Origin: an uncultured Candidatus Saccharibacteria bacterium
GTDB lineage: Bacteria; Patescibacteriota; Saccharimonadia; Saccharimonadales; CAIOMD01
DNA length: 64,000 nucleotides
Assembly: GCA_964566135.1 (NCBI GenBank)
Contig: CAZMHM010000003.1
Span: forward strand, 15,856-79,855
Reading direction: 5' to 3'
Shown: positions 11,655 through 45,962 of the stretch, one piece after another
Position numbering within the stretch: position 1 is the first letter of the stretch
Layout: each line of letters starts with the position of its first letter
Translations under genes and position numbers: made by a program
The notes under the pieces: generated by a model
Told to the model about the DNA's origin: nothing
What the model saw: the letters and a program-made list of their open reading frames with translations, nothing else
The model's database searches: none

Positions 11655-11718
11655 CATGAGCTATCAATATCAATCACACCTTACATCGTTTATCACAATA
11701 TCATCCTCTAACTTCGCT

Positions 11719-11753
11719 GCTCTTATTGGTGGCCATTCGCCACCAATAAGAGC
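11719..11753 (+). other. Perfect 15-bp stem / 5-nt loop hairpin 65 nt after the stop of A, with no U-tract
   Basis: GCTCTTATTGGTGGC-cattc-GCCACCAATAAGAGC. An analogous U-less hairpin follows gene C at 53288-53314. Confidence 0.6.
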
Positions 11754-11907
11754 GCTTAGGGTAGCTGTGTAATCTCGCGGATACACAGGCCCAGGATGCA
11801 AAAAACAAAAACATTTTTGCTACCTGCAAACATACTCGTATGGCCACTTGCGCGTTTGGTATACCGCACTCGGGGTAAAGGGCTAGCAACAAATACAAAA
11901 TCCAACC

Positions 11908-11936
11908 AAAGCCGCACAGCAATGTGCGGCTTTTTG
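11908..11936 (+). terminator. Rho-independent terminator
   Basis: aaaGCCGCACA-gcaa-TGTGCGGCttttt: 8-bp GC-rich stem with A/U extension, followed by a T5 run. Confidence 0.75.
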
Positions 11937-11993
11937 TACCTATAAATTTATTCAAATAATCGTTTTTTATTTTTTATCTTTAATGATACTTTT

Positions 11994-12434
11994 ATTACTT
12001 TGCCGAGGCAAAGTAATAGCAAACCGACTGGGCGCAAATCAAAAAGACTCTTATCTGATAGTAATAATCACAAAGCACAAAAAGGACTTCACTCCGTTCG
12101 GCCCCTTCAAATACCAATAGAACTCTGGGGCTAACTTTTTGCCTTAGCTTTGATGATTTAACTCGTCTCTAAATCAGTATTAGATTTGATGCCCAGACTC
12201 ATTAATAACAAGATGTTTCTGCGATTGATGTCGGGCATCAGGGATACCATGGGCAGGATTGCCAAACTTACTAACTTCAAAGCAAAAAGGCTAGTCTAAA
12301 ACTCTACTCAAATATAATGAGTTTTAGACCGACTGCAAGGAGTCCTTTCTGCAGTTGTAAGGCTTGGCAAAAACCTGCACCACGGGATATATGCGCCCGA
12401 GAGTTTTTGTATTACTTTTTGGGTAAAAAGTAAT
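11994..12434 (+). repeat. Structured intergenic repeat family, copy 1 (variant 3' half), bounded by two ATTACTTT..AAAGTAAT hairpins
   Basis: Left hairpin 11994-12017 (ATTACTTTGC-cgag-GCAAAGTAAT). Long imperfect inverted repeat 12028-12196 (CTGGGCGCAAATC...CAAAAAG / CTTTTTG...GATTTGATGCCCAG). Right hairpin 12411-12434 (ATTACTTTTT-gggt-AAAAAGTAAT). The first ~210 nt align with copies at 21514 and 44840. Confidence 0.7.
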
Positions 12435-12704
12435 AAAGAAAGACCTGCTTTTAAATAGCCAGAAACTAATCAGTTTTGGTATGCAGCTTGCTTTAACCCT
12501 GTGGAAAACCTCCATACCCTCAAACCTACTCATTGTAAGTATCTCTACGTTTTGGTTATGTTGTTTTAGTTGTGTTGCGATAGCGCAGTGTGACGATTCT
12601 AGATTGAAGGGAGGTAAAATGTTGTTAATATAACAATATTTTGTGATATTGTTTTGCATGGGTTTGGTGCGTTTATTTGTATACATATATATACATAAAA
12701 CGTC

Positions 12705-12740: not shown

Positions 12741-12965
12741 AGTTTGTCAAAACGAACATTCAAAGAGCAGATAAAGACGTTAAAAACAAAACAAGATTGT
12801 CCGCAGCGAGTTCATCGTCACAAAATTATGTGGCCGTAAACTTGAATAAATCTTGAGCAAAAAATCTTAAAAAAACACAAGAGATTTGCAGTAGCAACAA
12901 ACATGCTCGGCTCGTAAAAATACAAGACAAACCGCAGAAATTAAAACAAAGGTAACAATTCACAC
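12741..12965 (+). promoter_or_regulatory. Conserved ~225-nt 5' leader of giant gene B (paralogous to 45741-45962)
   Basis: AGTTTGTCAAAACGAACATTCAAAGAGCA...GACGTTAAAAACAAAACAAGAT is near-identical in both leaders. The shared blocks ATGCTCGGCTCGTAAA and ACAAGACAAACCGCA..AAAACAAAGG lie just before a GTG start. The leader is A/C-rich with only a weak AAGG ~15 nt upstream. Confidence 0.6.
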
Positions 12966-15900
12966 GTGAGTAGACTGTTCCGCACCAGTCCCATACTTTC
13001 ACGCACCCATAAAACCTCTGATGTAACAGTGGTACGGGTGCTCTTTGTCGTGTTTGCACTTGCGTTGTTTGTTGCAACGTTCGCTATATATCCTTATACG
13101 CGTGACGCAGGTACGCGCACAGCTAAGGCTGCAACTAACTCAACCCTCAACTTCCAAGCTCGTATCCTCACATCTGGTGGAGCAGTTGTATCAGATGGTA
13201 GCTACAACATTCGTTTCAAGATTTACACTGGTGGTACTAGTGGTGGCCCAGGCGGTATTGGTGCCGCTAACGCTGGTACACTACTTTGGACAGAAACCTG
13301 GCAGAACTCTAACAGCCAAGGTATTGTTACTAAGAACGGCTACATCAGTGCAGCCCTTGGTAGCATTACTGCCTTTAGTGGTATTAACTGGGATCAAGAG
13401 CTTTGGGTAACCATGGACGTTGGTGGTACTAGCGTTGGTGCATCACCAACTTACGACGGTGAAATGCTCCAAACCGGCAACAAGCGCATGAAGGTAACCG
13501 GTGTACCATACGCACTGGCTGCTGGCACTTTGCAAACCACCAATGGAGCCGGTACCCTCAGTAGCACCCTTGCTATTAACACTCCAACGGTTGGTAACCA
13601 AACCTTCCAAATCCCTGACCAAGCCGCTGCTGGTACGTACACAATTTGTATTCAGAACGCGACGGGTTGCGGTTTCCTTAAACGAGGAACAGCCGACACT
13701 TCATCGGGTGCAGCTGGTGCTGGTTACCTGTATGGTTTTACCAACTCATCTAGTGCACTCACTGGCGGTGTTCTGCAACTAGATAACGGTACCAACACTG
13801 GTAACACTCTCTATGTCGCATCATCTGGCAACCCAGCAGCCGGTAAAGCACTCATCGTTGCTAACGCCGCTACTGGTGTTACTGGTAACCTCATTGATCT
13901 CCAGCTCAATGCCGTCAGCAAGTTTAGTGTGAACCAGGCAGGTAATGTCATAGCTGCTGGCACAATTACCAGCGGTGCAGTGAACGGGCTAACCCTCACC
14001 AGTGCCGCTGATGGCTTTACCATAGCTGGTGGTACTACCAGCCGAACTTTAACCGTCACTGGCGCCAGCATCACTATTGGTAGCACCATTACGCCAACTG
14101 CAGCAGGAGCACTTAGCGTGACATCCAATGGTGCTAACGCATTAACACTCGATAGCGGCGGTGCTGCAAATGTAAACATCGGTACTGGTGCCGCCTCCAA
14201 AACCATCCAAATTGGCACCACTGCCGTAAACACTGGTAACACCCAAGCTATTGGCATTGGTAACACAGCAGCAGCCGGTACTACCAACGTCACAATTGGT
14301 GCAACCACTGGTGCTACTGGTGGTACCACCACCATCCAATCGCTTGGTACCCTAGCACTCGGTAACAGCATCAGCCCAACCGTTACCTTACAGTCAACTG
14401 TTGGTGGCACCATTAACCTTGGTACTGCAACTACCACCGGCACTATTAGTCTTGGTGGCACAAGTACCAGTGGCACTATTACCCTTGGTCAATCCAGTGG
14501 TGTTAACAACACCATTAACATTGGTGCAAACATAGCTAACACCTTCACCCAAACCATTAACATTGGTACCAGTGCAACAGGTACTACCAACACAACCATT
14601 GGTTCGGCAACTGCTGGTACTACTATCCTCCAAGGCACTACCCGCTTAAGCGCACTGACCACCAACGGTTTTGTTAAAACAACTGGTGCAAACGGAACCC
14701 TCGCAGTCAGCACTACGGTTGCGCTTGGTAGTGAGGTGAGTGGTATCCTTGGCGCAGCTAATGGCGGTACTGGCAATGGCTTTACCGCATTCAGTGGCCC
14801 AACAACAGCGACTAAGACCTTCGCACTACCTGATGTTTCAACAACTATCTGTACTACCAACAGTGTTTGTGCTGGGTACGCACCAAGTGCAACTAATGGC
14901 TATGTACAGTTGGCGCCGGCGTCAATCCAAGCTGATAGCACTACCAATACTAGTATCTTCCTGAATAAAACAGGTGCAAGTGGCAGTCTGCTAGATTTGC
15001 GAAACAACAACACGAGCATATTTTCTCTTGGATATTCGGGTGCCCTTACAGTACTACCAGTTCAGCCAGCGGCTCTTGCCGCTAATGGTACCTCCCAAGG
15101 CACCACGGTTAACTTTAATGGTGGAATAGGTGGCAACACTACTGGTACAACTGGCCAAACTGCGGGTCAGGGTGGCAATCTCTTCTTTAGTGGCGGTAAT
15201 GGTGGTACTGCCGGAGTAGGTTCTACGAATGGTAGGGGTGGTGATATTACACTACAGGGTGGTACTGCTGGTGCTGGAGCAGGTGGCGCAAACTTTAGTG
15301 GTAACGTACTGCTACAACCAAATACTGGCTTTAGTGTTGGCGTAGGTACTCCAACACCCGCTAACCAGTTCTCGGTCAATGCGCTTACGACTGCAGATGC
15401 TAATTATCGCGTTGCAATCTCTACTCGTGCAACAACCGATAAAGGCCTACTAGTTCAAGGAATCCTTAACCAATCTGGTGATTTGTTCCAGGCCCAAACC
15501 AGCACAGGTGCAACCCTCGCATCTATTGGCGCAACTGGCGCAACCGCATTTAAGAACTCGGTCGATTCTAGTAGTGCATTCCAGATTCAGACCGCAGCAG
15601 GTGTTAATGCAGTTAATCTTAATAATACATACGATACCAACAACCTATTTTCTGCTAACCCTAGTTTCGAGGTAAACACCAATGGTTGGGCTGCAGAAGC
15701 AGCGGGCGGCTCTATAGCTCGCACCACGACAGCGGGCCAGTTTTATTATGGTGATGCAGGTGGTGTGGTCACTACAACTACTACGGCTGGTACGGGTGTT
15801 CGCTATAACCTTACCCTTACAGACGCCACTGTATACAACCTGACTATTCCAATAAAAGGAGCAACGGCATTTAGCACACTACAAATTGGTTATGCATCTA

Positions 15901-18900
15901 CTGGCTTGGTTGGTAGCGAGGGCACTGCTGGCCAGAACTGTACTGCCCTAAATGTAACTACAGGCTGGAGCTTTGTAAGCTGTACTATCACGACAACAAC
16001 GCATTCTGGTACGCCGTATATATATATAAAGCAAACCGATGCCGGCACGGCGCGAACATTCTATATTGATGGCGTAATTTTAGCTCCTGCTGCATTTGGC
16101 AATCTTGGATTTACCGAATCGCATCTATCATTACAAGACACCACATTGGCAATAAATACTACTACGGATACACAGGCAGCGTTAACAATTCAACAGCGCA
16201 TCAGCCAGGGTGGCCTATTGCTTAAGGGTAGCGGCGAAGTAAATATCTTCCAGCAACCACTGCTTGATGTGCAGTCTTCGAGCGGTAGCCCGTTACTACG
16301 AGTGTTAGATACTGTCAATACCGTTCGAGCAACTGGTGGTAGTAGCTTGTACCACAGCGCAGCCTTTACGTCAGTATCTGGTTCGGATGGGTTCCAGTCT
16401 TTGAATGTGTACGGTAACTCTGCAACGCAAACAGCAGATTTGCTGCGAGTACAAAAGAACGCAGGTGCAACCACCGGTTTAGTTGTAACTGCAGCTGGCC
16501 GCCTTGGTATTGGTACGCCGGTGGTGAATACCAATGATGTATCGACAGTGAATTATGATTTAGCATTCGGTCAAGGCGCTGATAGAACTATTGGCGTTGA
16601 AACACAATTAACCGCCGCTACTGCAGGAAACAATCTAACAATTAGTTCTGGCCAAGGCAATACAACCGGGGCAGGTGGAAATATAGCACTGCAAGCTGGT
16701 GGCAGCGGTACTGGTGCTACTGGTAATGGTGGTGGAATTACGCTTACCGCAGGTACTGCGTTGTCAACCGATGGTAACGGCGGTGATATAACGCTAGTTG
16801 CTGGTGCCAAATCCGGCACGGGTACAGGCGGAAAGATAGTGGTTAAACCTGGCACACTTGGCAATCGCATCGACTTCTTCCAATTCCAAAACCAAGGTGG
16901 GTTCCAAGTCGCAAACGTTGACACCCAAAACAACATCTTCAATTTCGGACAGGGTAGTCTCATAGACGGTAAAATTCGCTTCTACAATGCTAGCAGTGGC
17001 AACTTTGTAACAATGGATGCATCAACTGCAGCAGCAAGCTATGTACTACGTCTACCAACTACAGCTGGTGCTGCATCAGATTGTCTTAAGAACTCTGGTA
17101 CTGCTGGTGTGCTTACATTTGGTAGTTGTGCAGCAGCAAGCTCGTTGCAATCTGCATACGATGCTGATGTTGATGGTTCGGACACGGTTATTGCATTAAC
17201 AGCCGCTGACGACTCGCTTATTCTACGTAACCCTGCAGCCGGTGGCACTGATAGTACATATATATTAACGCTCGATCAATTAGCAACAACAGCAAAAGGT
17301 GGTTTAAGCGTACAAAGTGCTGGTACTGGCAACTTGTTGCTTGTTACAGACACTACTGCAACCGCACGTGATGTCCTAACTATTGCAGATGGCGGTGCTA
17401 CTACATTCAGAAATCAAACTAATACTGGGGCGGCATTCCAGGTGCAAAACGCTGCAGGCAGTAGCATTATCAATGTTGGAAGTTCCACTCCACAATTTAC
17501 CCTAAGTGATGGGGCGGTCGCAGGCGCTGGTAATTTAGTACTTACAACTAACGTTGCAAGTGGCGAAGATGCAGGAGATGTAATATTTAACAACAATGCC
17601 GGTACCCAAAAGGCTCGCATATGGTCATCTAGTGCAGCGGGAGTGAGCGGTCTATTCCTAAGCTCTGGTGATCTTACTGCAGATATTTCAATCGACAATT
17701 CGGGTAACACAACCATTGCATCAAACCTCACAGCGAATGGATCATCTCTCTTCAAGAATGGGGCCGATTCTACGACCGCCTTCCAAATCCAAAATGCAGC
17801 CGGCGCAAACATACTCAATGTAAATACCACTGCTGGTAACCTTCTTATTAACGGTGTAGTGCCAGCTACCTTTACGGGTAGTGTCGCTACAAGCCTTACG
17901 CCATTCGCAATCGAAAAAGTTGGCGACTTAATCTATGTAGTAGGTGCAGCTAACAACTTACAAATATTTGACGCTTCTAACCCCGCCTTAGTAACCCTTA
18001 AGACAACATTTGCCGTAACAGGTGCAAGTGCGCTTGAATCAGTTGTTGTACGTGGCAATTATGCATACATCTCGGACTTTACGGCCACTAAGTTCTTTAT
18101 TGTTGACATATCAAACACAAATGCGCCTGTACTTGTAAAAACTGTGACAACTGCCAGCAGTATTGTTGATCTTAATGTTTATGGTAACTATGCATATTTG
18201 TTTACCAACGCAAATACCATTGTTATATACGACATCACAAACCCAAATAACCCTGTTCTTAAAAGCACCACCGCCACTAGCATTACTACCTTTAGTGGTG
18301 CCAGCGGTATCGTGGTAAAGGGGAGCTACTTATATATATCAGGTACTAATGGCACTAATGGAAAGCTATACATATACGACATTAGCAATCCAAGCTTACC
18401 TGTGCTTAAGAATGGCGCTGGTGCCACAACCAACTCAACCTCTCCAGCCGGTATGAGTGTCGTTGGTAGCTATGCGTACATATATAACCGTACACTTACT
18501 GCATCACTTGAAATCTTTGACATATCTAATGCCACAACTACCGCTGCGCATGTTGGTACAGTAAATCTTACCGCAGGTGGCACAATTGCTGGCTGGGGTC
18601 CGTCTTCGGTGTCGGTACAAGGTAATAGAGCGTATGTAACTAATAACTCGGCAAACAGGCTCGAAATTATTGATATTTCGGCTGTTACAGCGCCTACAAT
18701 CAGCGGTTCCGTTTCTACAGATACTCGCCCGGCGGGAGTTAAAGTAGACGGTTTGTATGCCTATGTACTTACCTACACGAGTGCCACAATTAAGACTTAT
18801 AACATTGGTGGTGCATATGCTCAGACTCTCGAAGCCGGTAATCTCAACGTGACTGATTTGCAAGTAGGCAACAGCGCTACCTTTAATGCTAACGCCAGTA

Positions 18901-21506
18901 TCTTTGGAAGCTTAAATGTTGGTCAAAACCTGCAAGTCAATGAAGATTTGGGCGTGGCTGGCAATGCAAAGTTTCAGAATACTGCCAATAATACTAATGC
19001 GTTCAAGATACAAAATACAGCAGGCGCTAATCTGATTAATGTAGACACAATATCAAATAATAATAATCTAATCACTAACCCAAGCGCAGAAGTTGATACT
19101 TCTGGCTGGAATACAAATGCGCCGCGAACAGGCACTGCAATATCACGAACAACAACGGCAGCAAACGTGTATTACGGTGTTGGTGCAATTGATGCAAACG
19201 TAACAACTGGTTCTGTAAATTCTGGCGTAAACTATCCAATAACACTTACAGCGGGTGTTGCGTATAACGCTACTGTCATGATGAAGCTAACGACTAATGG
19301 TAACGTAACGTTTGGTTATGCGCATAACGGTACAGAAGGCACGTACCAAAACAATGCATGTTATGGTGGCAACGCTGGTACGGGATGGTATATTTGTAGC
19401 CTTACATTTACGCCAGCTACGGTTAGCGGCTCGCCGTACTTCTTTATCAAGCAAAACGATTCTGTGGTCCGTCATATCTACATTGATGGTTTATTTATCG
19501 CCCCTGTAGCGGGCTGGACGGGTGGCTATCAAGAAGGTCAAATAAATCTTGGTAATTCGGCCACTCCAGTTTATGTTGGTGGTTCACCCTCAAATCCAAT
19601 TGTAAATGGGATTGGTACTCTTTTTGTTCAGCAGGTACGCGATAAAGCAGGATTGCAGGTTCGTGGCACTCCAGAAAATGATTTGCTTAGACAGCCTATT
19701 TTAAACGTAGAAACAAGCGGACAATTCTCGCTCTTGAATGTCAACGAAGCACAGGCAGTAACGCAAATTCAGGGTGGTTCGGCATTTTGGGGTAGCGCCG
19801 CCTTAAGGGTCTTGAGTAATGATGCTGGTGCAACGGCACTACGAGTTATGGCTGCGCCGAGCCAAACAGGCAATGTATTTGAGGTAACGGACAATAGTGG
19901 CACTGATATGTTTACAGTAGGTTCCGCTGGCAGTACTCTTGTTAAGACATTAACTAATTCAACAACAGCTTTCCAAGTACAGAATTTGGGAGGTACCGCT
20001 GCCTTAACGGTTGATACTACCACTAATGACACTACTCTAAGTGGAGATCTAAGCATTGGTTCGGGGGGTACGCTCGGCCAAGTTATATTTAATAACGGAA
20101 CAGCCAACCTGCTCAGTTATCCAAACGTTGGTGTAGCTGCGCCTACATTCACAACTAGAAGTGCTGGCACTAAGATATTGCTCTATAACGGTTTAACCGG
20201 CAGCGCTACCGATTATGCAATTGGTATTGCAAATAACACGCTCTGGAATAGTGTACCAGCCTCTACGAATCAATTTGCCTGGTACGTAGGCACCACTGCG
20301 GTCGCAACACTAAATGGGTCCGGATGGTTTAATGTTGCTGGCACGGGTACTGCAAACGATGCACCGCTCCATATTCAAAATAGTGGAAACGCATGGACTA
20401 CTGCAACTTGGAAAAAATCTATTCGACTTGATGGTGGTGCGAACGCCATTGAATTTAGTGCAGGTACGGCAAATCCGACTGGTATTGGTGGAACTACAAA
20501 CGGTGTTTATATCTGGGAAGCTGCCGGTGAAACGGGTGCTTCTGGGCTTACCTATGTCATGCGCGCATCGTCTTCATTAGGGTTTTCTGCATATATTGCT
20601 AACGGAGCCGGTGCTACTGCGGTTTGTGCCTCTTCTACTGTAGCAGGTAACAGAACCTTCACTGCAGCTGCAACCGTATGTACTAACCCATCATCAATAC
20701 GACTAAAAGAAAACGTAACTGATATGTCTGATGCGCTAAATATTTTGGGCCAACTACGACCAGTTGCGTTTAACTGGAAGGCAAGCACTGGAATAACTGC
20801 AATTAATGGCGGCTCAGCCGATTATGGTTTCATTGCAGAAGAAGTAAATAATGTTATACCAGAACTAGTCTCTCGTGATGAAAATGGCCAAATACAAGGA
20901 CTCAACTATTCTGGCTTTGTGCCATTCCTAGCTCGTGCTATTCAGCAACAACAAGCAGAAATCACTGCGCTACAAGGTAACGCAGCCGGCATTACTGGTG
21001 GCGGTACTGTAAACGGTAATTTGGCAATCACTGGCAGTCTAAATGTCACCGGCCCAACAACGTTGGATGGCGGGCTAACCGTAAATGGCAATGCAGTCTT
21101 TAACGGAAACCTTACTGTGCAAAACATCCAAGTCGCTAATATCACTATCAATGGGCACATTATTACCGCTGGTAACGCACCAACCGCTGCAGTTGAAACT
21201 GCTGCTGGCATAGCTGATACCCAAAACAATATTGCTGCTCCAGTGGTAACAATAGATGGTAATGATACCGCTGGATCCATTACAATTGTTGCCGGTGCAA
21301 GTACTACAGCGGGTGACATGGCCAACGTGACTTTTACTACTACATTCGGTAAAGCGCCTCGCATTATCTTAACCCCAGTAGGTTCAGACAGCGCTAAGCT
21401 ACAAACCTACGTAAATGGTACCAGTGCTGCTGGCTTTAAACTTGGTACAAATGTTGCACCAGCCGCTGGCACAACGTACACGTATAACTACCAGATAATG
21501 CAATAA
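12966..21506 (+). CDS. Giant cell-surface fibre protein, paralog B (2,846 aa) with a phage-type S74 domain near the C-terminus
   Basis: GTG start conserved with gene C (MSRLFRTSP..). TM/signal-anchor VLFVVFALALFVATFAIY, then NSTLNFQARIL...WTETW...VTGVPYALAAG, an N-terminal domain shared with C and E. Also two GGxGG blocks, two CBM-like modules (15650-16090, 19070-19510), an LVIVD region, S74, and the shared C-terminal module. Confidence 0.93.
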   Translation: MSRLFRTSPILSRTHKTSDVTVVRVLFVVFALALFVATFAIYPYTRDAGTRTAKAATNSTLNFQARILTSGGAVVSDGSYNIRFKIYTGGTSGGPGGIGAANAGTLLWTETWQNSNSQGIVTKNGYISAALGSITAFSGINWDQELWVTMDVGGTSVGASPTYDGEMLQTGNKRMKVTGVPYALAAGTLQTTNGAGTLSSTLAINTPTVGNQTFQIPDQAAAGTYTICIQNATGCGFLKRGTADTSSGAAGAGYLYGFTNSSSALTGGVLQLDNGTNTGNTLYVASSGNPAAGKALIVANAATGVTGNLIDLQLNAVSKFSVNQAGNVIAAGTITSGAVNGLTLTSAADGFTIAGGTTSRTLTVTGASITIGSTITPTAAGALSVTSNGANALTLDSGGAANVNIGTGAASKTIQIGTTAVNTGNTQAIGIGNTAAAGTTNVTIGATTGATGGTTTIQSLGTLALGNSISPTVTLQSTVGGTINLGTATTTGTISLGGTSTSGTITLGQSSGVNNTINIGANIANTFTQTINIGTSATGTTNTTIGSATAGTTILQGTTRLSALTTNGFVKTTGANGTLAVSTTVALGSEVSGILGAANGGTGNGFTAFSGPTTATKTFALPDVSTTICTTNSVCAGYAPSATNGYVQLAPASIQADSTTNTSIFLNKTGASGSLLDLRNNNTSIFSLGYSGALTVLPVQPAALAANGTSQGTTVNFNGGIGGNTTGTTGQTAGQGGNLFFSGGNGGTAGVGSTNGRGGDITLQGGTAGAGAGGANFSGNVLLQPNTGFSVGVGTPTPANQFSVNALTTADANYRVAISTRATTDKGLLVQGILNQSGDLFQAQTSTGATLASIGATGATAFKNSVDSSSAFQIQTAAGVNAVNLNNTYDTNNLFSANPSFEVNTNGWAAEAAGGSIARTTTAGQFYYGDAGGVVTTTTTAGTGVRYNLTLTDATVYNLTIPIKGATAFSTLQIGYASTGLVGSEGTAGQNCTALNVTTGWSFVSCTITTTTHSGTPYIYIKQTDAGTARTFYIDGVILAPAAFGNLGFTESHLSLQDTTLAINTTTDTQAALTIQQRISQGGLLLKGSGEVNIFQQPLLDVQSSSGSPLLRVLDTVNTVRATGGSSLYHSAAFTSVSGSDGFQSLNVYGNSATQTADLLRVQKNAGATTGLVVTAAGRLGIGTPVVNTNDVSTVNYDLAFGQGADRTIGVETQLTAATAGNNLTISSGQGNTTGAGGNIALQAGGSGTGATGNGGGITLTAGTALSTDGNGGDITLVAGAKSGTGTGGKIVVKPGTLGNRIDFFQFQNQGGFQVANVDTQNNIFNFGQGSLIDGKIRFYNASSGNFVTMDASTAAASYVLRLPTTAGAASDCLKNSGTAGVLTFGSCAAASSLQSAYDADVDGSDTVIALTAADDSLILRNPAAGGTDSTYILTLDQLATTAKGGLSVQSAGTGNLLLVTDTTATARDVLTIADGGATTFRNQTNTGAAFQVQNAAGSSIINVGSSTPQFTLSDGAVAGAGNLVLTTNVASGEDAGDVIFNNNAGTQKARIWSSSAAGVSGLFLSSGDLTADISIDNSGNTTIASNLTANGSSLFKNGADSTTAFQIQNAAGANILNVNTTAGNLLINGVVPATFTGSVATSLTPFAIEKVGDLIYVVGAANNLQIFDASNPALVTLKTTFAVTGASALESVVVRGNYAYISDFTATKFFIVDISNTNAPVLVKTVTTASSIVDLNVYGNYAYLFTNANTIVIYDITNPNNPVLKSTTATSITTFSGASGIVVKGSYLYISGTNGTNGKLYIYDISNPSLPVLKNGAGATTNSTSPAGMSVVGSYAYIYNRTLTASLEIFDISNATTTAAHVGTVNLTAGGTIAGWGPSSVSVQGNRAYVTNNSANRLEIIDISAVTAPTISGSVSTDTRPAGVKVDGLYAYVLTYTSATIKTYNIGGAYAQTLEAGNLNVTDLQVGNSATFNANASIFGSLNVGQNLQVNEDLGVAGNAKFQNTANNTNAFKIQNTAGANLINVDTISNNNNLITNPSAEVDTSGWNTNAPRTGTAISRTTTAANVYYGVGAIDANVTTGSVNSGVNYPITLTAGVAYNATVMMKLTTNGNVTFGYAHNGTEGTYQNNACYGGNAGTGWYICSLTFTPATVSGSPYFFIKQNDSVVRHIYIDGLFIAPVAGWTGGYQEGQINLGNSATPVYVGGSPSNPIVNGIGTLFVQQVRDKAGLQVRGTPENDLLRQPILNVETSGQFSLLNVNEAQAVTQIQGGSAFWGSAALRVLSNDAGATALRVMAAPSQTGNVFEVTDNSGTDMFTVGSAGSTLVKTLTNSTTAFQVQNLGGTAALTVDTTTNDTTLSGDLSIGSGGTLGQVIFNNGTANLLSYPNVGVAAPTFTTRSAGTKILLYNGLTGSATDYAIGIANNTLWNSVPASTNQFAWYVGTTAVATLNGSGWFNVAGTGTANDAPLHIQNSGNAWTTATWKKSIRLDGGANAIEFSAGTANPTGIGGTTNGVYIWEAAGETGASGLTYVMRASSSLGFSAYIANGAGATAVCASSTVAGNRTFTAAATVCTNPSSIRLKENVTDMSDALNILGQLRPVAFNWKASTGITAINGGSADYGFIAEEVNNVIPELVSRDENGQIQGLNYSGFVPFLARAIQQQQAEITALQGNAAGITGGGTVNGNLAITGSLNVTGPTTLDGGLTVNGNAVFNGNLTVQNIQVANITINGHIITAGNAPTAAVETAAGIADTQNNIAAPVVTIDGNDTAGSITIVAGASTTAGDMANVTFTTTFGKAPRIILTPVGSDSAKLQTYVNGTSAAGFKLGTNVAPAAGTTYTYNYQIMQ
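17900..18830 (+). other. LVIVD-type beta-propeller region of paralog B (approximate bounds)
   Basis: NYAYISDFTATKFFIVDISNTNAPVLV, NYAYLFTNANTIVIYDITNPNNPVLKS, SYAYIYNRTLTASLEIFDISNATT, RAYVTNNSANRLEIIDISAVTAPTISG, ending YNIGGAYAQT exactly as A ends YNIGGAYIQA. Confidence 0.55.
20688..20975 (+). other. Peptidase S74-type intramolecular chaperone / autoprocessing domain (tailspike-endosialidase type) inside B
   Basis: PSSIRLKENVTDMSDALNILGQLRPVAFNWK...ADYGFIAEEVNNVIPELVSRDENGQIQGLNYSGFVPFLARAIQQQQAEITALQ. The Ser-x4-Lys dyad spacing (S-S-I-R-L-K), the GxIA[QE]EV..xxPxxV block and the terminal helical segment match the family pattern known from phage tail spikes and fibres. Confidence 0.75.
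20970..21503 (+). other. C-terminal module of B, homologous to 11124-11651 of A, lying downstream of the S74 domain
   Basis: Colinear alignment with the C-terminus of A (see feature 11124-11651). Confidence 0.7.
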
Positions 21507-21513
21507 CCTTGTT

Positions 21514-21964
21514 ATTACTTTTGCTGACAAAAGTAATGCAAAATCACTGGGCGCAAATCAAAAAGACTCTTAGCTGATAGTAATAATCACAAAGCGCAAA
21601 AAGAACTCGCTATGCTCGGCTTCGCCAAATTCTAGCGGAAGGCTCAGCTGGCTTTTTGCCTTGGCTTTGATGATTCTTACATCATCTAAATCAGTATTTG
21701 ATTTGATGCCCAGACCCTAAGAATAAAATATACCGTGATTAACGGGGTCCGGGGCATCGGCTTGCTATAGGGTAGATTTACGTCATAAGTAGCAGAGTAA
21801 TTACCGAGGACTCGTCCCAACGCTTCTTGGATATGTTTCGTTGGGACCGACCGTAGGGAGTTCCGCAGGTACTGCTAGTTATATGTAAAGATACACCTGC
21901 TAGCAAACGCAACCCCGGCAGTTTACCCAACTTTGCTGTCCAAAGTTGGAAAAGTGCGTTTGCT
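21514..21964 (+). repeat. Structured intergenic repeat family, copy 2 (candidate structured ncRNA or non-autonomous mobile element)
   Basis: Hairpin 21514-21537 (ATTACTTTTG-ctga-CAAAAGTAAT) starts 8 nt after the stop of B. Long inverted repeat 21547-21713. A multi-helix 3' module runs to ~21964, with stems GTCCCAACG/CGTTGGGAC, CCAACTTTG/CAAAGTTGG, AGCAAACGCA/TGCGTTTGCT and CCGGGG/CCCCGG. About 450 nt align with copy 3. Confidence 0.7.
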
Positions 21965-21984
21965 GTATATATTAAGATATCTAT

Positions 21985-22452
21985 CTAAGCGACGACGCGA
22001 CGGGTGACACGGCAGAGTGGCGAATGTGGCACACTCCACGTTGTGGTGCAATTAAAACACTGATATAAACCATCTGCGCGCTGCAAACTAACCACGCTAC
22101 AGTTAGGGCATTTGGCACGTTTGTGCAGCCAATCGCGGTACGTGTCTAAGCAGTCTTGGATGTGCTCACCGTCAATATCAACGTTGTATTTCTTACCTAA
22201 GCGTTTTGCATGTTGCCATGCGGTTGATTCTAATTTTAGTAGCTCAAAATCATTTGCGTAGTGCACATGGCCAAGCGCAGCATGCGAAACTTCGTGTAAG
22301 AGCGCCCATACACCATGCTCAGCAATGTCTTGGTGGGTCGTATAGGTAATCTTGCTTTCGCGCGGTGACCAGTAAAACGAATCACCGTTTTTAAAGGTAA
22401 TAGCAGGGAAGTCTTTTTTAAGAGTCGGTAAAATATTACTGATGCTGTTCAT
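21985..22452 (-). CDS. Putative zinc metallopeptidase-like protein (HExxH) with a C-terminal zinc-ribbon
   Basis: 155 aa. Contains LLHEVSHAALGH (HExxH plus downstream H) and CPNC..x15..CFNC. Its start overlaps the stop of the upstream ROK kinase gene by 17 nt (operon-like). Confidence 0.7.
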   Translation of the reverse strand: MNSISNILPTLKKDFPAITFKNGDSFYWSPRESKITYTTHQDIAEHGVWALLHEVSHAALGHVHYANDFELLKLESTAWQHAKRLGKKYNVDIDGEHIQDCLDTYRDWLHKRAKCPNCSVVSLQRADGLYQCFNCTTTWSVPHSPLCRVTRRVVA

Positions 22453-23251
22453 GCTGGTTGGCTAAAATTACACAGCCAAATACTACTGCCTGCTCGGCTT
22501 CTTGGGCGGGTACAATAGGTGGCTTATCAATTAACGGTGGCGTCATGGCATCGATATGATGCTTCAAAAACGTACCGTATTTTGCAAAATGGGTGCCCAC
22601 ACCACCACCAATAACTATTACATCCGGTTCTAAAACTGCTGTTAAATCAACAATACCAAGTGCGAAGTTTTTCGAAATTGCATCCCATGCTTTTGGATCA
22701 TCAAGGTCAGAAGCACGCTTGCCATACTTAGCAACAATAGCTTTACCACTGGCATATTTTTCCCACATCTCGAGCTTGCCATCATGCTCAAACAACATGT
22801 TGCCACCTTCGCTATCTAAGAAGTCTGGGTCCAAATAGCCATCTGTTACTAGGCCAGTACCAATACCGGTACTAAAGGTTATATAGAGCACGCGGTGGGG
22901 CAGTGGCTTAATACGGTGCGCCTCTGATAATCCAGCTAAATTTGCATCGTTTTCAATCAGTACTTTTGTGCCAGTTAACTTCGCCACATCATGCTGTAAT
23001 GGCACGTTTTTCCAGGGCAAGTTACCAAAGCCAATCACGGTACCGGTTTTGCGGTCAATCTTGCCAGGGGCAGCCATGGCCGTAATGGTGCGATCTTTTG
23101 CTGGAATAGCATTAATCGCCAACCCTAGCTCTTTTATAAAATCTTTGTAGTTTTTTGGGGTTTCAAATCGCTGTTCACTAACGACAGTGCCGTCAGATTT
23201 GCAAAGTGCCACGAGTGTTTTGGTCCCCCCAATGTCTATGGCAATAATCAT
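22436..23251 (-). CDS. ROK-family sugar kinase (glucokinase-like)
   Basis: N-terminal MIIAIDIGGTKTLVAL ATP-binding motif, ENDANLAGLSEA, and GGGVG near the C-terminus; 271 aa. Confidence 0.85.
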   Translation of the reverse strand: MIIAIDIGGTKTLVALCKSDGTVVSEQRFETPKNYKDFIKELGLAINAIPAKDRTITAMAAPGKIDRKTGTVIGFGNLPWKNVPLQHDVAKLTGTKVLIENDANLAGLSEAHRIKPLPHRVLYITFSTGIGTGLVTDGYLDPDFLDSEGGNMLFEHDGKLEMWEKYASGKAIVAKYGKRASDLDDPKAWDAISKNFALGIVDLTAVLEPDVIVIGGGVGTHFAKYGTFLKHHIDAMTPPLIDKPPIVPAQEAEQAVVFGCVILANQHEQHQ

Positions 23252-23335
23252 CGCTAAAAGTGTACCACTTTTTAGAACCGCGGCGCTAGATTTGGTGTAC
23301 TAGGCGGACATTTTATGGTGCCAAATGCCCCTCTG

Positions 23336-23364
23336 TTGCAACAGATACGCCAGTAGCGTATAAT
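23336..23364 (+). promoter_or_regulatory. Putative promoter of rpsA
   Basis: TTGCAA - 17 nt - TATAAT, about 120 nt upstream of the rpsA ATG. The leader contains the stem CTCATGC...GCATGAG. Confidence 0.65.
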
Positions 23365-23483
23365 AAGAAGCAATCTGAAAGTTAAGCTGCGTGCACACAG
23401 ACTCATGCCCTCGTCCGGGGTAGTATAGTCATCGTGCATGAGCTCGCTTTAAGAAATACAATTTAAAGGAGTGATTTAATCAC

Positions 23484-24548
23484 ATGAGTACTAAAGTAAC
23501 TATGGACGAACTGCTTGCTGGAAGCGACTTAAAAGCGCTGAAATCAGGTGACGTTTTAGAGGCAACTATTACCTCTATTCGTAAGCACGAAATCTGGCTC
23601 GATCTTGGCCCATATGGCGTTGGTGTAGTAATGCGCCGCGAAATTGGCCACGGACAGGTACTTGAAGTTGGCCAAGCGGTCAGCGCAAGTGTCGTTGACC
23701 CAGAAATCGAAGACGGCTACGCACTATTAAGTTTGCGTAAAGCCGCAAAGGATCGCGGTTGGGATGAACTAAAGCGTTCTATGGACGACGGCGAGATTAT
23801 GGAAATCACTGCATACGATGCAAATCGTGGCGGCCTATTAATCGAACTAGAAGGTATCCGCGGATTCCTACCAGTAAGTCAATTAAGTGCAGACCACTAT
23901 CCACGTGTTTCTGGCGCTGATAAAGACGAAATCTTGCAAAAGCTAAACTCACTTATTGGCAAGCCAATTCGTGTTCGTTTGTTAGATGTAAGCCGCAAAG
24001 ATAACAAGCTTATCTTTAGCGAAAAAGAAGCAATCAAAGACGACATGCAAGCTCGCTTTAGCGAACTTAAGGTTGGTGACACTGTAGAAGGTGTCGTAAC
24101 TGGCGTAATCGACTTTGGTGCGTTCGTAAACGTTGATGGCATCGAAGGCCTTATTCACATCTCTGAAATTTCATGGGAACGTGTTGAAGATCCTCGTAAG
24201 TATGTTAAAAACGGCGACCGTATCGAAGCAAAGATTATCGCTATCGACAAAGATCGCCTAAGCCTTAGCCTTAAGCAAATGGGTGATGACCCATGGGTTA
24301 AGGATGTTGAGAATATTAAAAAAGGCCAAACTGTCGAAGGTACAATCACACGTATTACACCATTTGGTGCATTCGTGCAGCTTACCCCAGCAGTTGAAGC
24401 TTTGGTGCATGTATCAGAAATCGCCGATGGCGGTGATGATGCAGTAGATCCAGAAAAAATCTTTAAGCTCAATGAAAAGAAGCAGTTTAAAGTACTAGAC
24501 GTTAACAAAGACGCTCGCAAAATTGCGCTCAGTCTTAAGGACGCCTAA
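23484..24548 (+). CDS. rpsA: 30S ribosomal protein S1-like (four S1 domains)
   Basis: 354 aa with four repeats of the S1 OB-fold pattern (G.v..G.V..i...G.fV.l..gveGl.h.SE...). AAAGGAG RBS 7-8 nt upstream of the ATG. Confidence 0.9.
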   Translation: MSTKVTMDELLAGSDLKALKSGDVLEATITSIRKHEIWLDLGPYGVGVVMRREIGHGQVLEVGQAVSASVVDPEIEDGYALLSLRKAAKDRGWDELKRSMDDGEIMEITAYDANRGGLLIELEGIRGFLPVSQLSADHYPRVSGADKDEILQKLNSLIGKPIRVRLLDVSRKDNKLIFSEKEAIKDDMQARFSELKVGDTVEGVVTGVIDFGAFVNVDGIEGLIHISEISWERVEDPRKYVKNGDRIEAKIIAIDKDRLSLSLKQMGDDPWVKDVENIKKGQTVEGTITRITPFGAFVQLTPAVEALVHVSEIADGGDDAVDPEKIFKLNEKKQFKVLDVNKDARKIALSLKDA

Positions 24549-24558
24549 ACAAACACCC

Positions 24559-24592
24559 GTTTATCCGCCTGGGTTCGCCTGGGCGGATAAAC
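24559..24592 (+). other. 11-bp stem-loop between rpsA and infB (no U-tract)
   Basis: GTTTATCCGCC-tgggttcgcctg-GGCGGATAAAC. Possibly a processing, attenuation or stability element. Confidence 0.5.
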
Positions 24593-24620
24593 AGTTAAGT
24601 AAAGGAGACGGTTAACAGCC

Positions 24621-26390
24621 ATGGCACGAACGATTGAAATAGGCGACATGATTACGGTTGGCGCACTGGCTGACAAACTATCTCTACCTGCAACTAAGGT
24701 GATTGCTGAGCTGTTTAAGAACGGCATGATGGTTACTATCAACGAAAAGATTGATGTTGATACTGCCCAGATTATTGTTGATGAGCTTGGGCTTGAGGTT
24801 GAGCTTGTTGCAAAGCAGCATGTCGAAGACGATGTTGTTACCAAGCGCGAACGCGTTTATAGCGATAAAGCCGAGGTACGCCCACCTGTAGTAGCAGTGA
24901 TGGGTCACGTCGACCACGGCAAAACCAGCCTGCTTGATGTTATCCGCCAAGATGATGTTGCCGCGCACGAAGCCGGCGGTATTACGCAGCACATTAGTGC
25001 ATACCAAGTGACTCGCAATGACCGCCTCATTACATTTCTAGATACTCCTGGCCACGAGGCTTTTGCAGCTTTGCGCGAACACGGCGCGCACCTAACTGAT
25101 GTCGTAATTATTGTTGTCGCCGCCGATGACGGCATTAAGCCACAAACACTCGAGGCTATTCGGTTTGCTCGCAAAGCTGGTGCCCAAATGATTGTTGCCG
25201 TTACTAAAATCGACAAAGAGGGCGCTAACATTGATCGCGTTAAGCAACAGCTATCTGAACAGCAATTGATTGCAGAGGAATGGGGTGGTGACACCGTTAT
25301 CGTACCTGTTTCGTCTAAGACCAAAGAGGGCGTTGATAAGCTACTCGACATGGTGCTGCTAGTTGCCGATGTCGAAGAACTTAAGGCAGACGTAGAAGTA
25401 CCTGGCGAAGGTTTGATTATCGAATCACATATGGAACAAGGCCGTGGGCCAATTGCGGTTGCTCTCGTACAACAAGGTACGCTTAAGCAAGGCGATTTTG
25501 TTGTCGCTGGTAGTACCTATGCAAAGGTTCGTGTACTTGATGATAGCCGTGGCAAGGTTATCAAAAAAGCTGGTCCTTCAACTCCAATTATCATTACTGG
25601 CTTTAAGGCATTGCCGCAATTCGGCGATAAGTTTACGGTCGTTGCCAACGAAAAGGCCGCACGTGCACTATCTACCGACAACGCTAATGAATCTGCCGAA
25701 CACAATGGCCGCTTAGACATGAGCAGTGGTGAACTTATCCGTCTTATCAACCAAAAGACTGCCATGCAAGAGCTTAACGTAATTGTAAAAGCCGACGTGC
25801 AGGGCTCGTTAACCTCTGTAATTGACAGCCTAAAAACACTTGATACCGATGAGGTTTCAATCCGTGTGGTTGGCTCGGGCGTTGGTGCAATTACCGATAA
25901 CGATATTCGCATGGCTGCAACCAGCAAGGCTATTATTTATGGCTTCCAGGTTACGATGCCGGCTAATATCAAGCACATTGCAATGCGTGATAAGGTGCCT
26001 GTACGCCTATACCGCATTATTTACGAGCTACTTGATGATGCCAAGCAAGAACTAAGCGACATGCTTGCGCCAGAAGAAATTGTTACCAATGTTGGGCGCT
26101 TACTTGTCCGCGGTATCTTTAAAACCAGCAAAACAGAGAGCATCTGTGGTGGCGAAGTCACTAAGGGCAAACTTGTTATTCCTGCATTTGCTACCGTGTA
26201 TCGTGGTGACGATATCATTGCCGAAAACTTGGTAGTAACAAATCTCAAACATGGCCCAACCGACACAAAAGAAGTTCTAGAAGGCGAAATGTGCGGGATG
26301 AACCTTGCAACAACATCGCGCCTAGATCTCGAAGAAGGTGACCGTATCGAGTTCTTTACCCGAGAAATCCGCGAACGCAGCCTCTTTTAG
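24621..26390 (+). CDS. infB: Translation initiation factor IF-2 (short form)
   Basis: GTPase motifs GHVDHGKTS, DTPGH, TKID, then the C-terminal IF2 domains (VIVKADVQGSLTSV...); 589 aa. Confidence 0.95.
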   Translation: MARTIEIGDMITVGALADKLSLPATKVIAELFKNGMMVTINEKIDVDTAQIIVDELGLEVELVAKQHVEDDVVTKRERVYSDKAEVRPPVVAVMGHVDHGKTSLLDVIRQDDVAAHEAGGITQHISAYQVTRNDRLITFLDTPGHEAFAALREHGAHLTDVVIIVVAADDGIKPQTLEAIRFARKAGAQMIVAVTKIDKEGANIDRVKQQLSEQQLIAEEWGGDTVIVPVSSKTKEGVDKLLDMVLLVADVEELKADVEVPGEGLIIESHMEQGRGPIAVALVQQGTLKQGDFVVAGSTYAKVRVLDDSRGKVIKKAGPSTPIIITGFKALPQFGDKFTVVANEKAARALSTDNANESAEHNGRLDMSSGELIRLINQKTAMQELNVIVKADVQGSLTSVIDSLKTLDTDEVSIRVVGSGVGAITDNDIRMAATSKAIIYGFQVTMPANIKHIAMRDKVPVRLYRIIYELLDDAKQELSDMLAPEEIVTNVGRLLVRGIFKTSKTESICGGEVTKGKLVIPAFATVYRGDDIIAENLVVTNLKHGPTDTKEVLEGEMCGMNLATTSRLDLEEGDRIEFFTREIRERSLF

Positions 26391-44461: not shown

Positions 44462-44488
44462 TACGCACTAATCGAACTTAAAAACACG

Positions 44489-44520
44489 ATATCCCCAAAC
44501 AAAATTTGGGGATATTTTTT
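44489..44520 (+). terminator. Rho-independent terminator after rplU
   Basis: ATATCCCCAAA-caaaa-TTTGGGGATAT followed by a T-run. Confidence 0.8.
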
Positions 44521-44542
44521 ATTTTTATACACATAAAAACAG

Positions 44543-44572
44543 TGGACATCTTGCAAATAACAGGGGTAAATA
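44543..44572 (+). promoter_or_regulatory. Putative promoter of a short non-coding transcription unit
   Basis: TGGACA - 18 nt - TAAATA. The spacer contains CAAATAACAGGGGTA, identical to the 15-mer at 40946-40960. Confidence 0.45.
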
Positions 44573-44578
44573 GGCTGT

Positions 44579-44787
44579 GGAAAATGAGTACATATTTTGT
44601 GCAAAAACTATTGCATTAGTTTGCCAAATAGAACATACTAAAAGTACAAAAATAAACACAAGAGGTACGTGCAAAAAGGGTATGAAGAACTAGAAAGCCT
44701 TCTCATCGTAAGCTATTAGATCTCGCAGGCTAAGAGCTTACAAATACTCGCACTACCAGGAAAGCGCCCCCAACCGGGCGCTTTTTT
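44579..44787 (+). ncRNA. Candidate ~210-nt small RNA (promoter-to-terminator unit with no credible ORF)
   Basis: Bounded by the promoter-like site above and the terminator at 44761-44787. It contains the internal hairpin GTAAGCTaTTAG-atctcgcagg-CTAAgAGCTTAC (44719-44752). The only ORF is 16 codons and its SD is too close to the start. Confidence 0.3.
44761..44787 (+). terminator. Rho-independent terminator
   Basis: aaaGCGCCC-ccaacc-GGGCGCtttttt. Confidence 0.7.
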
Positions 44788-44839
44788 ATTACTCACTTCT
44801 TAGAATCATCTCTGCAATGCTGCAAATAATACTTCCTTT

Positions 44840-45290
44840 ATTACTTTTGGCAGCAAAAGTAATGCCAAACTGCTGGGCGCAAATCAAAAGACTCTTATCT
44901 GATAGTAATAATCAAAAAGCGCAAAAAGAACTCGCTACGCTCGGCTTCGCCTAATTTTATAGGAAGGCTCGGCTGACTTTTTGCCTTGGCCTTGTAATTA
45001 GTTACATCATCTAAATCAGCATTTGATTTGATGCCCAGACACATTAATTACAAGTTCTATGTGATTATTGGGGCCCGGGGCATCGGCTTGCTACAAGGTG
45101 TGATATAGCAAAAAGTAAGGAGTAACTACCGAGGACCAGTCCCAACACTTCCAAATAAGTATTGTAGGGGCCGACCAAAGGGGGTTCCGCAGGTACCGAA
45201 GCTTTTAGGTATAGCGCACATCTGCTAGTAAACACAGCCCCGGCAGGTTTACCCAACTTTGCTGCCCAAAGTTGGAAGAGTGCTTTAAGA
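44840..45290 (+). repeat. Structured intergenic repeat family, copy 3
   Basis: Hairpin 44840-44863 (ATTACTTTTG-gcag-CAAAAGTAAT). Long inverted repeat 44873-45038. The 3' module is colinear with copy 2 and conserves its stems (GTCCCAACA/TGTAGGGGC with a U-A to U-G change; CCAACTTTG/CAAAGTTGG; CCGGGGC/GCCCCGG). Confidence 0.7.
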
Positions 45291-45740: not shown

Positions 45741-45962
45741 AGTTTGTCAAAACGAACATTCAAAGAGCAAACAAAGACGTTAAAAACAAAACAAGATCGT
45801 CCGCAGCAGGTTCATCGTCATGTCCGCAACTGGCTATAAACTTGACTAGGTCTTGAACAAACAAATCGCACAAACAAAATGCGAATTGAAATAACAACAA
45901 AAATGCTCGGCTCGTAAACAACAAGACAAACCGCACAAACTAAAACAAAGGCACAATTCGCA
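45741..45962 (+). promoter_or_regulatory. Conserved ~222-nt 5' leader of giant gene C (paralogous to 12741-12965)
   Basis: The first ~85 nt are near-identical to the B leader. It shares the blocks ATGCTCGGCTCGTAAA and ACAAGACAAACCGCA..AAAACAAAGG and the same GTG start context (GTGAGTAGACTGTTCCGCACCAGTCC). Confidence 0.6.

Follow-up and report, generated by a model that had tools for sequence, protein, structure and literature searches.

A family of structured intergenic units arranged in head-to-head pairs in Saccharibacteria

Gene content of the window and anatomy of the repeat

The window (the whole stretch of DNA that was analysed, 64,000 nucleotides) is chromosomal DNA of a Saccharibacterium; some homologues of its ORF155 and giant proteins (see below) are labelled Candidatus Saccharibacteria or Saccharimonadales. 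It contains housekeeping genes (ROK kinase, rpsA, infB, fmt, def, priA, map, ftsA, ftsZ, nrdR, class II ribonucleotide reductase, ileS and rplU) and five giant ORFs, named A to E, which carry LVIVD, Kelch, CBM_4_9 and Peptidase_S74 domains. The giant-gene region diverges between strains, with 71-88% identity versus 93-100% in its flanks. No transposase, RAYT (Y1/HUH), recombinase, integrase, invertase or reverse transcriptase is encoded in the 64-kb window, nor are TnpA, TnpB or IscB; retron, DGR and ωRNA readings of the elements described here were rejected because the window has no reverse transcriptase, TnpB or IscB. ARAGORN detected neither tRNA nor tmRNA in the window. The giant ORFs and a small gene adjoining one of the elements are located as follows:

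Window start to 11654, + strand: giant ORF A, which runs into the window
12966-21506, + strand: giant ORF B
21985-22452, - strand: ORF155, a 155-aa gene convergent with B
45963-53216, + strand: giant ORF C
53695-60123, + strand: giant ORF D, with no unit
From ~61368, + strand: giant ORF E, which runs off the window end, with no unit

A first-pass annotation had placed a ~450-nt highly structured repeat at 11994-12434, 21514-21964 and 44840-45290 (copies 1 to 3, all on the + strand), and these coordinates were borne out. The repeat is confirmed as real and far beyond chance. The three aligned copies share 77% mean column identity, and the hairpin TTACTTT-N(4-12)-AAAGTAA occurs four times for 0.01 expected, the fourth occurrence (12412-12433), missing from that annotation, being the 3' end of copy 1. 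The strong structure first described was also recovered: the ~167-168-nt imperfect inverted repeat and the 3' module fold far better than shuffled sequences (z of -8.05 for copy 2, -7.58 for copy 1 and -3.67 for copy 3), and the + strand of a whole pair has a fold energy of -140 to -165 kcal/mol. The two stem changes reported between copies 2 and 3 are present (GTCCCAACG/CGTTGGGAC to GTCCCAACA/TGTAGGGGC, and TAGCAG/CTGCTA to AAAAG/CTTTT), and an ORF comparison agrees that no ORF is common to the three copies.

The description of each copy as a single ~450-nt unit made of three distinct parts (a hairpin, a 167-nt inverted repeat and a 3' module) does not hold. Each ~450-nt element consists of two diverged homologous ~220-nt units, head-to-head, because a covariance model built from 3' modules alone matches the opposite strand of every 5' module. 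This model (R1) was built from seven 3' modules of the window and its relatives and searched without filters. It recovers these seven modules and, with E-values of 1e-12 to 1e-13, the minus strand of the 5' module of every copy (window 21505-21724, 11985-12207 and 44832-45049, plus 3214-3434 in the related strain L001; 45-51 bits), and it also picks up a second, inverted unit in two other relatives, L024 and L042. The hairpin and the 167-nt inverted repeat are the left unit viewed from the wrong strand, and motifs common to the 5' and 3' modules are visible in an alignment of both. The 3' module, originally attributed to copies 2 and 3, is indeed found in both, but copy 1 also carries a diverged version (153 bits). 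A second covariance model (R2), built from all 15 known units, finds exactly six units in the 64-kb window. The two units of a pair have their 5' ends on the inside and their terminal hairpins on the outside; in the window, ~33 nt separate the closing helices. The units and spacers of the window are:

11985..12207, - strand: left unit of copy 1 (R1 46.5 bits, E 3.5e-12; R2 148 bits); long hairpin 12028-12197, outward terminal hairpin 11994-12017 (z -5.2)
12198-12232: inter-unit spacer of copy 1
12220..12442, + strand: right unit of copy 1 (R1 153 bits), the most diverged unit; terminal hairpin 12411-12434, ATTACTTTTT-GGGT-AAAAAGTAAT, of the left-unit type
21505..21724, - strand: left unit of copy 2 (R1 51.1 bits, E 1.6e-13; R2 159 bits); long hairpin 21547-21714, terminal hairpin 21514-21537
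21715..21746, no strand assigned: inter-unit spacer of copy 2, AT-rich, ~33 nt
21739..21958, + strand: right unit of copy 2 (R1 195.6 bits); terminal hairpin 21926-21949
44832..45049, - strand: left unit of copy 3 (R1 45.4 bits; R2 150 bits); terminal hairpin 44840-44863
45041-45072: inter-unit spacer of copy 3
45065..45284, + strand: right unit of copy 3 (R1 179.9 bits); terminal hairpin 45252-45275

Read 5' to 3' on its own strand, the whole unit (~220 nt, with a hairpin of ~170 nt) begins with a short AT-rich lead-in (…ATTAAyGGG). It continues with a closing helix CYGGGC/GCCCRG, in which a CAUC bulge is conserved, then with a long helix (~25 bp, interrupted) and a branched tip with the conserved CCGAcc-NNAG-GGAGUYC. 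A terminal hairpin of 9-11 bp (nnACYUUUG…CAAARGUnn) lies ~10 nt past the closing helix and is followed by AAAAR. The landmarks of the left unit, on its own strand, are GTCTGGGCATC at the start, GCCGAgc-TAG-cGAGTTC at the tip and GCGCCCAG closing the helix, with the small hairpin ~10 nt on. The right unit of copy 1 keeps the core spacing GGGCATC-(85)-GACCGAC-(62)-CCCG, and the two outer hairpins of this copy are near-identical in sequence. In the spacers, the motif TGnGATTAAyGGGG is conserved immediately upstream of the right unit, while copies 1 and 3 have a mirrored TTGTwATTAATG ahead of the left unit, and copy 2 a weaker form of it (TTTTATTCTTAGG). A central hairpin in the spacer was considered and rejected, as the spacer folds no better than shuffled sequences (z -0.7 to -0.9).

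Copy 2 exactly occupies the gap between the convergent B and ORF155: its first hairpin (21514) begins 8 nt past the stop of B, as originally noted, and its right terminal hairpin is 36 nt from the stop of ORF155. Copies 1 and 3 lie 532 nt and 673 nt from the starts of B and C, in agreement with the distances first given, and stand behind ordinary intrinsic terminators (11908-11938 and ~44765-44790). B is flanked by two pairs (copies 1 and 2), which are in direct orientation. Upstream of B and C, only the unit and a separate 220-nt leader are homologous, and what lies between the two is unrelated; 300-450 nt of unconserved sequence part copies 1 and 3 from the conserved giant-gene leader. A simple segmental duplication with the giant genes was rejected given this limited homology and given that copy 2 has no downstream gene on its strand; co-duplication is excluded as the whole story, the cross-lineage covariation described below also showing constraint.

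Conservation of the fold

The stems of the units are under selection and kept by compensatory changes. With RNAalifold on MAFFT alignments, compensatory (double-sided) changes were found in 29 of 48 pairs of the right units and in 16 of 56 pairs of the left units. In a model-fitted alignment of the 15 units, 88.8% of the cells are paired versus 63.1% after column shuffling and 39-49% when the partners are shifted by 1-3 columns; double-sided changes are seen in 42 of 48 pairs, and none of 500 shuffles reaches any observed measure; such an alignment is biased toward its own structure, and the MAFFT-based results agree with it. In L001, whose locus is orthologous to that of copy 2, a helix has been kept by block replacement (GCAAATCAAA/TTTGATTTG to GTACCAACC/GGTTGGTAC). 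Across the units, the two base pairs outside GGGC/GCCC covary as well (CC/GG, CU/AG, UC/GA). The unpaired CAUC bulge and the tip motif, for their part, are fixed between lineages that are otherwise 45-50% identical. A covariance model and more homologues, which the first-pass annotation had proposed as a check, have provided strong covariation support.

The strand on which the fold is read is less clearly marked. Sense and antisense strands fold about equally, with no MFE asymmetry in the units, and 2-6 G-U occur among ~55 pairs; equal folding and few G-U pairs are what a DNA-level palindrome would give. A strand test comparing G-U with A-C pairs at first gave ~3:1 for the own strand, but the reverse complement also had more G-U than A-C and the test, being biased, was dropped. 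Unpaired A is enriched in the right units on their own strand (0.29-0.46 A versus 0.14-0.27 U), with no such enrichment in the left units. The units failed a protein-coding test: they share no ORF, their substitutions are paired across stems and their gaps include 1- and 2-nt indels.

Distribution among relatives and database searches

Relatives were gathered by pattern scans (L024, L027 and L030) and through the neighbouring 155-aa gene (L001-L003). The 15 units known come from the window and five related Saccharibacteria lineages, and all are intergenic. Pairs with the compact arrangement are found in the window (33-nt spacer) and in L001. The pair of L042 has a spacer of 133 nt, which includes a fragment of a third unit, and lies 366 nt after the stop of a giant gene whose protein is 52% identical to B; an A-type giant gene is followed by a pair in the window and again in this distant relative. 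In L024, a groundwater Saccharibacteria MAG, the two units are ~800 nt apart and enclose a 126-aa ORF. This ORF is an orphan (one hit, itself) without Pfam domain, and a cargo hypothesis was rejected, the ORF being neither a conserved cargo nor a transposase. Single units occur in L043, L027 and L030. The units form several subfamilies, and membership does not follow the side of the pair: in L042 the unit on the right is of the window "left" type. The pair loci number five (copies 1 to 3 of the window, with L001 counted as the copy 2 ortholog, L042 and L024), and all have the same orientation relative to co-directional flanking genes. A T-rich pentamer adjoins the left end in all six pairs, and the flanks, YTTTT on the left and AAAAR on the right, show inverted symmetry, not direct repeats.

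Close relatives lack units at the same sites, and presence is patchy. In L043, the ortholog of the copy 3 locus, the right unit is 96% identical to that of the window, and ~68 nt of unrelated sequence stand in place of the left unit. L039, which has a B-like giant gene and an ORF155 84% identical to that of the window, carries no pair at the copy 2 site: a 69-nt spacer with a small hairpin is all that lies there, versus the 450-nt pair of the window. In L037 the A-type 3' region is joined directly to ORF155, without B and without any unit, and the sole scar-like trace is the 9-nt TTACTTTTT, which could be chance. The covariance-model search found no units in L037, L041 and L044-L046. Neither was a clean empty site found, L039 and L043 differing from the window by whole-spacer replacement. 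Target-site duplications, suggested earlier as a test of a MITE, were not found at the window flanks.

The repeat had been described as always next to giant genes. This link is local and holds for the three window copies only: two of the five giant genes of the window (D and E) have no unit, and the same holds for the four giant-gene loci of relatives that were checked (L039, the rplU-giant gene locus L044, and L045 and L046). Beyond the window, moreover, the units adjoin quite different genes. The left unit of L024 lies ~25 nt after the gyrA stop and its right unit ~370 nt ahead of 16S rRNA, in an interval that contains a perfect TTGACA-18-TATAAT; the unit of L030 lies ~420 nt upstream of a SAM riboswitch, and that of L027 adjoins an N6/N4 DNA methylase operon. 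Between L027 and L030 the units are 89% identical, in unrelated contexts, and since their similarity starts only ~8 nt before the closing helix, no common promoter has travelled with the unit.

The family matched nothing in Rfam, the database check put forward at the outset. A scan of the whole window with Rfam 15 at gathering scores gave 0 hits, and with a cut-off of E<=10 copy 2 and the L027 unit gave best E-values of 0.26-0.79, from eukaryotic snoRNA models far below their gathering scores. In a gathering-score scan of five related loci, the units were unmatched and the only hits, both outside the units, were the 16S rRNA of L024 and the SAM riboswitch of L030. The families covered include 6S, SRP, RNase P, tmRNA, Y-RNA-like, HEARO, OLE, raiA and ribozymes. 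An SRP-like reading of the CC-GNAG-GG tip was rejected, as SRP models do not match and the helices form a three-way junction, not SRP helix 8. BLAST of the pair against phages and plasmids found no match; pattern scans of viral contigs gave 0 hits, then 92 hits that the covariance model showed to be all chance. One of 20 hits of the genome pattern scan and two of 10 of the metagenome scan were real, the others being high-GC chance matches. No account of such elements, in Saccharibacteria or elsewhere in the Candidate Phyla Radiation, came up in the literature searches. The repeat is an undescribed, structurally constrained element family.

Nature of the units and possible significance

We tentatively propose, with a probability of roughly 0.4, that the units are a new non-autonomous structured intergenic repeat of the REP/REPIN/BIME, ERIC or BOX general kind. 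They appear closest to extragenic palindromic repeats because they combine multiple copies and subfamilies, inverted pairs with a variable insert, gain and loss between strains, the lack of an own gene, two strands that fold equally and hairpins preserved by compensating changes. Copies of the repeat would be made, lost and rearranged as DNA, through recombination or through an enzyme whose gene lies elsewhere in the genome. Selection would act on the folded single strand, either as DNA during mobilisation or as RNA when transcribed with the neighbours, and such selection would explain the paired stem substitutions together with the fixed loop and bulge sequences. Effects on neighbouring genes might include protection of mRNA ends, or insulation of the giant genes and of the convergent pair B/ORF155.

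REP (20-40 nt) and REPIN (~100 nt) are extragenic palindromes of proteobacteria that are mobilised by RAYT transposases; REP, REPIN and BIME form inverted doublets, or mosaics in which different subtypes alternate in orientation, with compensated hairpin arms, carry no gene of their own and often lie at gene 3' ends. The units resemble them in being extragenic and palindromic, in their inverted doublets and several subfamilies, in hairpins kept by compensating changes, in carrying no gene and in their frequent place at gene 3' ends. They differ by their size of 170-220 nt, their branched and sequence-conserved tip, their extra terminal hairpin, their number (six in 64 kb), the lack of a RAYT in the window and their host, a Saccharibacterium. 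ERIC, BOX, RUP and Correia/MITEs are imperfect palindromes of 100-200 nt, intergenic and often transcribed, which can alter mRNA stability or termination. Here the likeness lies in the intergenic, palindromic form, in the modular composition and in a presence that differs between close strains, whereas neither target-site duplications nor terminal inverted repeats of the transposase-binding type were found in our elements. For a MITE as such, the inverted architecture, the several copies and the patchy presence speak in favour, and the halves are inverted homologues as terminal inverted repeats are, but very long and diverged versus the typical short ones; the lack of a target-site duplication, of a clean empty site and of a transposase in our searches speaks against it. 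To our knowledge, stem covariation across distant lineages with fixed loops has not been described for MITEs.

IS200/IS605 ends and PATEs, their derivatives without ORF, share with the elements the subterminal hairpins at both ends and the T-rich pentamer at the left end, and IS200/IS605 and TnpB/IscB scaffolds also have a structured non-coding part of ~150-250 nt by one end. IS200/IS605 elements are expected to give no target-site duplication, and their ends are asymmetric and read on one strand. Our elements differ in that their halves are inverted homologues and that the window has no TnpA, TnpB or IscB; HEARO, the IscB-associated RNA, which is expected to be in Rfam, is absent from the matches in all Rfam scans.

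Several observations go against a mobile repeat of this kind. The window encodes none of the enzymes that might move it, be it a transposase, a RAYT, a recombinase or a reverse transcriptase. No target-site duplication was seen, and between occupied and empty sites the entire spacer is exchanged, without a clean insertion. A unit of 170-220 nt with a branched conserved tip is far larger and more elaborate than REP or REPIN, and loops conserved at 45-50% overall identity are more typical of functional RNA than of selfish DNA. Finally, a pair after an A-type giant gene in both the window and the distant L042 looks like inheritance, not recent movement.

The main rival, possible if doubtful, is that the units, or at least those of the right-hand type, are small RNA genes in their own right, ~220-260 nt long, the pairs being divergently transcribed paralogues. 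Such an RNA would act in trans, for example through a protein bound via the tip and the bulge, possibly controlling the neighbouring surface-protein genes. Multi-copy bacterial sRNAs are likewise intergenic, with covariation and conserved loops, and the strong covariation, the conserved unpaired motifs, the unpaired A of the right units and the constantly intergenic location without conserved ORF all fit this explanation. Some members also have signals for transcription. In L030 a same-strand intrinsic terminator directly follows the unit (GGCACT…AGTGCT + ATTTTTTG); in L024 the terminal hairpin of a unit is followed by a U-rich tail, and the sequence CTGCCA-16-TAAAAT, which resembles a promoter, stops ~10 nt short of the closing helix. 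Terminator-like 3' ends are, however, seen in L024 and L030 alone. The units of the window lack an intrinsic terminator, since their terminal hairpins precede A-runs, not U-runs (AAAAR on the own strand, GGTAAAC or GCAAAAT on the other). The TGnGATTAAyGGGG motif, conserved just upstream of the window-type units, is a candidate -10 element but a poor one (GATTAA without the final T), and it is absent from the L027 and L030 units. The ~33 nt between closing helices leave almost no room for two promoters, antisense folds as well as sense, the GU/AC test is non-discriminating and the left units show no unpaired-A enrichment. The units further differ from known multi-copy sRNAs by having no Rfam match, no consistent promoter or terminator in the window and tight head-to-head pairs, and a patchy, non-syntenic presence among close relatives in varied contexts is unusual for a conserved regulator.

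We consider it unlikely that the pair is a cis-acting part of the neighbouring transcripts, i.e. a stable multi-hairpin block in a 3' UTR and/or 5' leader, which may serve as an insulator or a factor-dependent terminator, or shield long mRNAs such as the 8-12-kb giant-gene messages from exonucleases. The uniform orientation at all five pair loci speaks for such a block, and so do the stability of the + strand of the whole pair and the position of the left terminal hairpin so close to the stop of B, and to that of gyrA in L024. Copy 2 fills the B/ORF155 gap, where L039 has its small hairpin, and the L024 unit immediately precedes the 16S rRNA promoter, a point at which read-through has to be prevented. 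Copies 1 and 3, on the other hand, already stand behind intrinsic terminators, which would make a further one redundant, and are split from the giant-gene leader by unconserved sequence; the hairpins have no U-tails, and neither the conserved loops nor the need for two inverted homologous units is explained.

Slightly less probable again is the more specific proposal that both halves are a new ~220-nt structured RNA class specific to Saccharibacteria, whose tip and CAUC bulge would bind a dedicated protein and so control the expression, or the recombination-driven switching, of giant surface-protein genes used by episymbionts for host attachment.

Folded-DNA recombination sites, in principle like integron attC or invertase sites, are very improbable. 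Any two pairs, each with both orientations, could delete, invert or exchange the giant-gene segment between them; B is bracketed by copies 1 and 2 in direct orientation, the L037 junction (no B, no unit) is as deletion of copy 1-B-copy 2 would give and the giant-gene region is a hot spot of divergence between strains. However, no integrase or invertase gene is present in the 64 kb, alternative junctions were never directly observed and L037 has no recognisable unit scar beyond its 9 nt. attC sites (core RYYYAAC … GTTRRRY, 57-141 nt, in one-orientation arrays) are recognised as a folded single strand, and the units resemble them in that structure is kept while sequence drifts and in sitting directly after a gene stop codon. 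They differ in having no integrase (tyrosine recombinase) in the 64 kb, a core that is not matched (ACCCAAC but GTTGGAA, which fails at the last position instead of giving GTTRRRY), about double the size, beyond the 57-141 nt range, and inverted pairs.

Saccharibacteria genomes are tiny, with little spare DNA, and against this background ~2.7 kb of hairpin units in a 64-kb window, their shape kept by compensatory evolution, is striking. If the units are RNA, they would be a well-supported new structured RNA family in a phylum with almost no known regulatory RNAs. If they are instead DNA-level repeats of the kind that we favour, they would be, as far as we found, the first large family of REPIN/BIME-like repeats to be reported from the Candidate Phyla Radiation, and would mark sites where giant adhesin-like genes are gained, lost and exchanged between strains. 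On either reading, the covariance model offers a direct handle for a phylum-wide census and for transcript mapping.

Non-coding sequences flanking the giant genes

Directly 5' of the GTG starts of the giant genes B and C lies an A-rich leader of ~220 nt:
12741-12960: leader of B
45741-45960: leader of C

The two leaders are 74-94% conserved in the repeat-finder blocks and 82% identical over 225 nt by BLAST, and the 300-450 nt that separate them from the repeat unit are unrelated in sequence. Gene E has the N-terminal signal region in common with B and C, without the ~220-nt leader.

A second conserved non-coding block, separate from the repeat units, was observed 3' of the A-type giant genes and is common to three lineages, namely the window and the loci L037 and L042 of relatives (alignment A7):
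11690-11940 (window): conserved block
10470-10790, minus strand (L037): conserved block
11938-12215 (L042): conserved block
11908-11938 (window): intrinsic terminator closing the block

In order, its parts are the hairpin TTGGYGGYC-WTTC-GCCRCCAA, the conserved sequence ATCTCGCRG, a tract rich in A and the terminator. This block is a candidate 3'-UTR element or, alternatively, a candidate sRNA derived from the 3' end.

The gap between rplU and copy 3 of the repeat (380 nt) encloses two terminators:
44488-44516: first terminator
~44765-44790: second terminator, GCGCCCCCAACCGGGCGC followed by a T-run, as read from the sequence

Because a possible promoter (TTGCAA…TAAATA) sits between them, the arrangement suggests a small independent transcript. 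Positions 44520-44790 of the window are identical to 340-610 of L043, which carries the orthologous copy 3 locus; the short-read contigs L005 and L006, from related strains, both stop at ~44703.

Domains and repeats within the giant genes

Giant protein B contains a Peptidase_S74 domain, the intramolecular chaperone familiar from endosialidases and the tail-spikes of phages, and the giant ORF E includes direct repeats near the end of the window:
20690-20870: Peptidase_S74 domain (B residues 2576-2635, ~210 residues before the C-terminus)
63346-63998: 161-nt direct repeat in three copies with 64-80% identity (family D5)

The direct repeats of ORF E presumably correspond to a protein repeat. A and B are 71% identical over their final ~290 nt (repeat family D6).

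ORF155 and divergence between strains

The 155-aa gene beside copy 2 (ORF155; 21985-22452, minus strand) is very strongly conserved, with 1368 homologues, of which those with names come from Saccharibacteria/Patescibacteria; a homologue is listed in one NCBI source as "ImmA/IrrE family metallo-endopeptidase", and the usual neighbour is a ROK kinase gene. In the related strain L001 the encoded protein is identical and the DNA just 87-95% identical, so that all the differences are synonymous.

The giant gene adjoining ORF155 varies among relatives, being B-like in L039 and having an A-type 3' end in L037. In L041, a relative's contig (ENA contig_123841), priA, rpsA, gyrA and further genes are split into many short ORFs, which looks like uncorrected long-read frameshift errors; the lack of giant gene calls there is therefore uninformative. 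When positions 20300-24968 were compared with L001, identity was 93-100% over rpsA/ROK and dropped to 71-88% in the stretch that takes in the 3' part of ORF155, the pair of repeat units and the last part of gene B. The giant-gene region is a hot spot of divergence and recombination between strains.
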